From Escherichia coli (lineage in GTDB: Bacteria > Pseudomonadota > Gammaproteobacteria > Enterobacterales > Enterobacteriaceae), in the NCBI RefSeq assembly GCF_003334385.1, contig NZ_QOWN01000187.1: a stretch of DNA of 377 nt, one strand, 5' to 3'. The position numbers and the translations under genes are program-made. The notes beneath the pieces are model-generated. The model did no database searches, was not told the origin of the DNA, and saw only the letters and a program-made list of their open reading frames with translations. Positions 1 through 377 of the stretch are shown here, piece after piece (within the stretch, counting starts at the first letter, position 1; the number at the start of each line of letters is the position of its first letter).

Positions 1-377
1 CACGATACCATTGCCAGAGTTGTATCCTGTATCAGTCCTGCAAAATTTCACGAGTGCTTTATTAACTGGATGCGTGATTGTCATTCTTCAGATGATAAAG
101 ACGTCATTGCAATTGATGGAAAAACGCTCCGGCATTCTTATGACAAGAGTCGCCGCAAGGGAGCGATTCATGTCATTAGTGCGTTCTCAACAATGCACAG
201 CCTGGTCATCGGACAGATCAGGACGGATGAGAAACCTAATGAGATCACAGCTATCCCTGAACTTCTTAACATGTTGGATATTAAAGGGAAAATCATCACG
301 ACTGATGCGATGGGTTGCCAGAAAGATATTGCAGAGAAGATACAAAAACAGGGAGGTGATTATTTATTCGCTGTAAA
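1..377 (+). CDS. ISAs1-family DDE transposase (H-repeat-associated protein), internal fragment; 5' and 3' ends lie outside the window
   Basis: Frame +1 (codons at 1-3, 4-6, ...) is open across all 125 complete codons. The translation contains blocks I recognise from E. coli H-repeat/ISAs1 transposases (yhhI/ydcC/ybfD group): [85 protein letters not shown]. The composition is that of a real protein, unlike the R/S/L-rich frame +2 translation. Recognition is from memory, not a database search. No gene symbol is given because several near-identical paralogs exist and 125 residues cannot distinguish them. Confidence 0.88.
1..377 (+). mobile_element. Interior of an ISAs1-family insertion sequence (H-repeat element); terminal inverted repeats and target-site duplications are not in the window
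   Basis: The window is wholly occupied by the transposase ORF. ISAs1-family elements are known to be single-ORF IS elements of roughly 1.2-1.5 kb, so the ends should lie several hundred bp beyond each side. Hand-counted GC is 160/377 (about 42%). Confidence 0.8.

Follow-up and report, generated by a model that had tools for sequence, protein, structure and literature searches.

What can a contig of 377 nucleotides, filled from end to end by part of an insertion-sequence transposase, tell about the neighbourhood it came from, and why does it begin and end where it does? The window, by which we mean the whole 377-nt stretch of DNA analysed here, is the complete contig QOWN01000187.1 (range 1–377, sequences identical) of the short-read draft Escherichia coli assembly GCA_003334385.1, and an exact look-up of the 125-aa translation gave this contig as the single record. 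A literature search with the assembly accessions yielded no paper. The product of the contig is named in GenBank as 'ISAs1 family transposase, partial [Escherichia coli]' (RCQ53241.1 / WP_114424664.1). The coding content of the window is as follows.

1–377, plus strand: internal fragment of the ISEc1/H-repeat transposase, codons 71–195 of 378, corresponding to nt 355–731 of the 1,291-bp element.
1–72, plus strand: C-terminal tail of the DDE_Tnp_1_assoc domain (window residues 1–24; Pfam PF13808, E = 2e-4, model positions 65–88 of 88).
94–375, plus strand: first half of the DDE catalytic domain (window residues 32–125; Pfam PF01609 DDE_Tnp_1, E = 3e-15, model positions 3–106 of 200).

Frame +1 is stop-free across all 125 codons of the window, and the resulting 125-aa fragment scores 180.1 bits against the NCBIfam model NF033564 'ISAs1 family transposase' (cut-off 70; profile positions 43–167 of 314), on which the closest full-length copy reaches 416 bits. 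By megablast, the best 48 records are genes annotated as 'ISAs1-like element ISEc1 family transposase', each with 99.7% identity and 1 mismatch; at locus L002 the alignment (99.7%) spans positions 8001–8377, inside a CDS at 7791–8927. The open frame, the Pfam domains, the family score and the near-identity to ISEc1 genes bear out the sequence-only reading, which had taken the window for an IS fragment and placed it in the ISAs1/H-repeat family. The translation of the window belongs to a protein cluster (90% identity, 858 members) whose listed members are mostly similar partial fragments from contigs of 200–700 nt. Two aspartate motifs lie in the window, IAIDGKT (Asp at nt 115–117) and ITTDAMGCQ (Asp at nt 304–306), and both are kept in a Salmonella relative (76% nucleotide identity) and in yncI (73%). 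They presumably hold the putative first two DDE acidic residues, in which case the Glu would fall downstream of the window. Against the five closest divergent copies, frame +1 shows 9–13 synonymous and 1–6 non-synonymous codon changes, a synonymous excess that is expected of constrained coding sequence; against ybfD, the most divergent copy, the counts are 9 and 10, respectively. A search of both strands of the window against Rfam returned no RNA family, and no internal repeats were found within it. The window is an ISEc1 (H-repeat, ISAs1 family) transposase fragment of an already known kind, annotated before this work, and there is nothing new in its sequence. The earlier remark that nothing in it is novel agrees with this, given the existing GenBank annotation and the presence of ISEc1 in 5311 of 5426 complete E. 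coli genomes, at a median of 4 places per genome (megablast).

As the window is the entire 377-nt contig, it carries no context of its own, a point that the sequence-only reading had also made; the ~2 kb on either side that this reading proposed to obtain does not exist in the record, and in such a whole-contig window of a multi-copy IS the ends are not biological boundaries. Their positions can be read from the differences between ISEc1 copies. The first difference between the window and the yhhI-type copy is at nt 78 (78 − 77 = 1), and the last one between the window and the ybfL-type copy is at nt 300 (300 + 77 = 377). The two terminal segments defined in this way are listed here.

1–77, no strand assigned: left graph-junction 77-mer, common to the yhhI-type ISEc1 copy; the left break needs yhhI.
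301–377, no strand assigned: right graph-junction 77-mer, common to the ybfL-type ISEc1 copy; the right break needs ybfL.

We simulated de Bruijn graphs from the K-12 copies yhhI, ydcC and ybfQ/ybfL/ybfD, which served as stand-ins for the source strain's own ISEc1 copies, together with the closest full-length copy bearing the window. With k = 77 the graph contained a unitig identical to the window, exactly nt 1–377, and graphs built with k = 55, 99 and 127 did not reproduce the window as a unitig. Elsewhere in the element, the k = 77 graph gave one unitig of 245 nt (window-relative positions 607–851) and otherwise fragments that were mostly under 200 nt. The flank-bearing contigs in this simulation would end ~200 nt inside the left end and ~90 nt short of the stop codon and would hold only ~18 and ~29 transposase residues. 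Because both the difference positions shifted by 77 nt and the k = 77 simulation reproduce the window, we infer that the assembler broke a multi-copy repeat at the two contig ends, the value k = 77 itself being taken from the fit. The source genome would carry several ISEc1 copies that are 94–97% identical to one another. In the k = 77 graph, the path of the window copy would merge with the yhhI-type path over nt 1–77 and with the ybfL-type path over nt 301–377, which would leave the assembler with nothing but the copy-specific part between these junction k-mers to report as a contig. The 245-nt unitig predicted by the simulation constitutes the entire contig in at least 20 draft assemblies (e.g., JAPMFO010000536.1, locus L015). 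IS scraps of this type are systematic products of short-read assembly. The biological importance of the window is small, with ISEc1 residing in nearly every E. coli genome and the fragment already deposited in GenBank; the useful result is procedural.

The boundaries of the element itself were set by aligning copies with different flanks and recording where similarity begins and stops; an inverted-repeat scan of L002 failed to single out the IS ends. The element measures 1,291 bp at three loci (L002, 7647–8937; L007, yhhI, 7235–8525; L006, ydcC, 7673–8963) and is bounded by imperfect terminal inverted repeats, with the left repeat reading CAGGGAAAGA... and the right repeat, as reverse complement, CAGGGCAAGAT.... 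Target-site direct repeats were not visible within 15 nt on either side of five related full copies. In K-12, the ybfQ remnant (L005 656–682, equal to window positions 1–27) stops exactly at window nt 27; the next H-repeat, ybfL, starts directly behind it with its left inverted repeat, and ybfD begins ~24 nt inside a left end. Together, ybfQ, ybfL and ybfD make up the known triple H-repeat of RhsC.

The composition of the window bears on whether its surroundings should be regarded as mobile. The window contains 118 A, 99 T, 87 G and 73 C, so that the hand-counted GC content of about 42% given in the sequence-only reading was exact (160/377, 42.4%); by codon position in frame +1 the values are 47.6, 36.5 and 43.2%. 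In a 50-kb sample stretch of K-12, windows of 377 nt had a mean GC content of 49.1% (sd 6.1) and 15.9% of them lay at or below 42.4%. With about one in six K-12 sample windows being as AT-rich, the GC content is not a strong outlier. The full element has a GC content of 40.1% and its CDS one of 41.4%; beside it in L002, the Rhs core reaches 63.6% and the region of the tip and small ORF 40.7%. The low GC of the window is a property of the element and is common to the AT-rich tip part of Rhs loci, and it speaks for an old foreign origin and not for surroundings that are mobile at present. The earlier step from low GC to a horizontally mobile context is weak, since the element is itself ~40% GC, near-universal and chromosomal (22,090 chromosomal vs. 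21 plasmid places in complete E. coli genomes, by megablast) and its transposition has not been observed, according to a genome paper (PMC3032704).

The statement that H-repeats occur beside Rhs elements and at O-antigen clusters agrees with the literature, which backs the Rhs association (PMC3032704) and describes H-repeat remnants at O-antigen cluster junctions in Salmonella, documented for group D2 (PMC3715488). For the window, context was approached by proxy through 6 of the 48 one-mismatch copies. All six were either Rhs-linked or located in the aspV island beside yafV, and a Rhs gene was found within a few kb in four of them. Two copies lie between two Rhs cores downstream of hcp/vgrG, in the gene order Rhs core, small ORF WP_001077738.1, ISEc1, dsORF-h1, second Rhs core. 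Another two sit at the edge of the aspV-tRNA island and directly adjoin the core gene yafV, which is downstream in both; upstream there is a truncated Rhs gene in one and IS1 in the other. The last two occupy the ybfL slot of the RhsC locus and are pseudogenes. A setting in an O-antigen or surface-polysaccharide cluster was not seen in any of the six inspected closest copies. The Rhs association suggested for the window stands by proxy, in that the inspected closest-allele copies are Rhs-linked, whereas the flanks of the window copy itself are absent from the record.

The one-mismatch allele occurs in at least three arrangements, and these are unequally represented: the left junction of the aspV island is found in ~52 records at 99% identity or more, and is possessed by 133 genomes, whereas the RhsC junction with a window-type allele reaches this identity in 2 records. 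Judging from the closest alleles only, the T6SS/Rhs island at aspV is the most likely home of the window copy. There, in the aspV-tRNA island, the copy would be an intact element of 1,291 bp whose terminal inverted repeats are imperfect; a Rhs tip and small ORF would lie upstream of it, and either yafV or dsORF-h1 with a second Rhs core would come next downstream. The copies in the ybfL slot at L003 (7829–8001) and L010 are mosaic, of ybfL type until ~107 nt before the window and identical to the aspV-island allele after that point, a pattern that indicates that H-repeat copies at separate loci have undergone gene conversion. Placement in the aspV island is weakened by this process, because gene conversion moves the allele from one locus to another.

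In the ISEc1 copies that abut yafV, the right terminal repeat is degenerate, with TAGTAATACCCCG or TAGTCTTACCCCG replacing TAATCTTGCCCTG, and the transposase ORF is intact. The positions of these ends are given below.

L009 and L011, ~5925–5937, and L008, ~8718–8730: degenerate right ends of the yafV-abutting copies.

The degeneracy of the right repeat suggests that the yafV-abutting copies are fixed at their sites. Salmonella enterica subsp. houtenae ATCC BAA-1581 (L012, 5700–6700) has a degraded relative of the ISAs1 family with 76% identity to the window, flanked by a vgrG-linked gene set and an RHS-core gene. Its position between the two extends the association of H-repeats, Rhs elements and T6SS genes to Salmonella. 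The L012 record is a bacterial WGS contig, though it is filed in a phage collection.

One base of the window is private to it.

235, plus strand: private substitution C (T in the closest copies), changing Ser149 to Pro inside a conserved 12-residue motif.

C235 is the sole mismatch of the window to the copies at L001, L002 and L003, and Ser149 is retained in both the Salmonella houtenae (76% nucleotide identity) and the yncI (73%) relatives. An exact match to the 131 nt around C235 was found neither in GTDB representative genomes nor in JGI metagenomes. A 55-nt query seeding on C235 recovered the base in 4 of the 5426 complete E. coli genomes, all on another sequence background, and C235 on the background of the window was absent from all 5426. 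The base would be either a real strain variant, possibly one that inactivates the transposase, or a consensus error. Since the exact C235 sequence is contained in no complete genome or scanned collection, the window copy could belong to a lineage with a different arrangement.

Considering these observations jointly, we hold it very probable that the window is a whole-contig scrap of ISEc1 (residues 71–195) split off at k = 77, with a low GC content that is the element's own, and that it likely represents an aspV-island copy. The closest competitor differs from this only in the locus. It places the copy in RhsC, within the ybfL slot of the ybfQ/ybfL/ybfD triple H-repeat, as a pseudogene and not in the aspV island, and PigCaeca_1 and LR-06 do carry the one-mismatch allele in that slot, with an internal stop upstream of the window. 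These are, however, two records against ~50 for the aspV-island junction, and in the k = 77 simulation the right break of the contig arises only with another allele present, of ybfL type and different at nt 300, which is the normal occupant of the slot; we therefore regard an origin from RhsC as unlikely. The isolated-remnant explanation, by which the window would be a genuine transposase relic lacking IS ends and degraded like ybfQ or yncI, draws on the existence of truncated H-repeats, as seen in ybfQ (ending at window nt 27), ybfD and yncI. It is the least probable of the placements weighed here, as the reading frame is intact and one base away from full-length intact copies, and both contig ends lie exactly 77 nt beyond the outermost sites that tell the copies apart, which is what a graph break, and not a biological truncation, would produce.

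A recent transposition or horizontal insertion would put the window copy among accessory genes at a new location, for instance on a plasmid, at a novel Rhs tip or in an O-antigen or capsule cluster. Such settings have precedents in the H-repeat remnants at Salmonella O-antigen cluster junctions (PMC3715488) and in the few plasmid copies of ISEc1 (21 places; 22 plasmid records), and the exact window allele was not found in the scanned collections or complete genomes. Yet the plasmid copies are at most 97.1% identical to the window and thus more distant than chromosomal ones, ISEc1 transposition has not been observed (PMC3032704), and the window is one base from an allele residing at fixed Rhs-linked sites, which leaves a new context less likely still than the RhsC locus. 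A narrower version, in which the C235 copy is an ISEc1 insertion at a site unseen in complete genomes (e.g., a new Rhs toxin/immunity tip or a surface-polysaccharide cluster), appears more improbable again; if true, it would be rare evidence of recent ISEc1 movement. Two specific sources were rejected. For plasmids, the best match was 97.1% and several of the 'plasmid' records were chromosome-sized; for phages, the collection yielded only a 1.5-kb unannotated record and the Salmonella WGS contig.

A second long reading frame crosses the window.

11–376, plus strand (L002 7967–8376): ORF of 136 codons in frame +2, which overlaps that of the transposase.

Frame +2 is stop-free over these 136 codons in all ten ISEc1 copies examined, where ~3.5–5 stops would be expected, and codon and synonymous shuffles put the probability of such openness at ~0.0005–0.0013. 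In the Salmonella relative (76%) and in yncI (73%) it is broken by stops. Most substitutions among ISEc1 copies are non-synonymous when read in this frame, and the frame +2 protein is not conserved. The stops in relatives and the non-synonymous changes speak against the ORF as a gene, and we judge it a non-functional by-product; a real overlapping gene is less likely than the insertion of the C235 copy at a new site.

Our preferred reading, that of a k = 77 scrap from a multi-copy ISEc1, can be set beside the systems it resembles. ISEc1, the H-repeat (H-rpt) of E. coli Rhs elements, was described in the 1990s, and the prototype of its family is ISAs1 of Aeromonas salmonicida. By the ISfinder convention, isoforms share ~95% or more nucleotide identity, and at this level the window belongs with ISEc1, being 96.6% identical to yhhI, 96.3% to ydcC and 99.7% to PGAP-annotated ISEc1 copies. 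Among the remaining K-12 copies, the identity is 96.0% for ybfL and 93.9% for ybfD. The ISEc1 copies of 48 other complete genomes match the window at 99.7% and share its frame and motifs; the window departs from them in the one private base C235 (Ser149Pro) and represents 29% of the element. With respect to the ISAs1 family as a whole, the window passes the equivalog cut-off of NF033564, its DDE_Tnp_1 domain is preceded by DDE_Tnp_1_assoc as in other members, and nothing visible in the window sets it apart from the family. Finally, in its extent the window does not differ from the repeat-collapse scraps of short-read assemblies: its left end lies k nt before the first site that distinguishes the copies, and its right end k nt past the last one.
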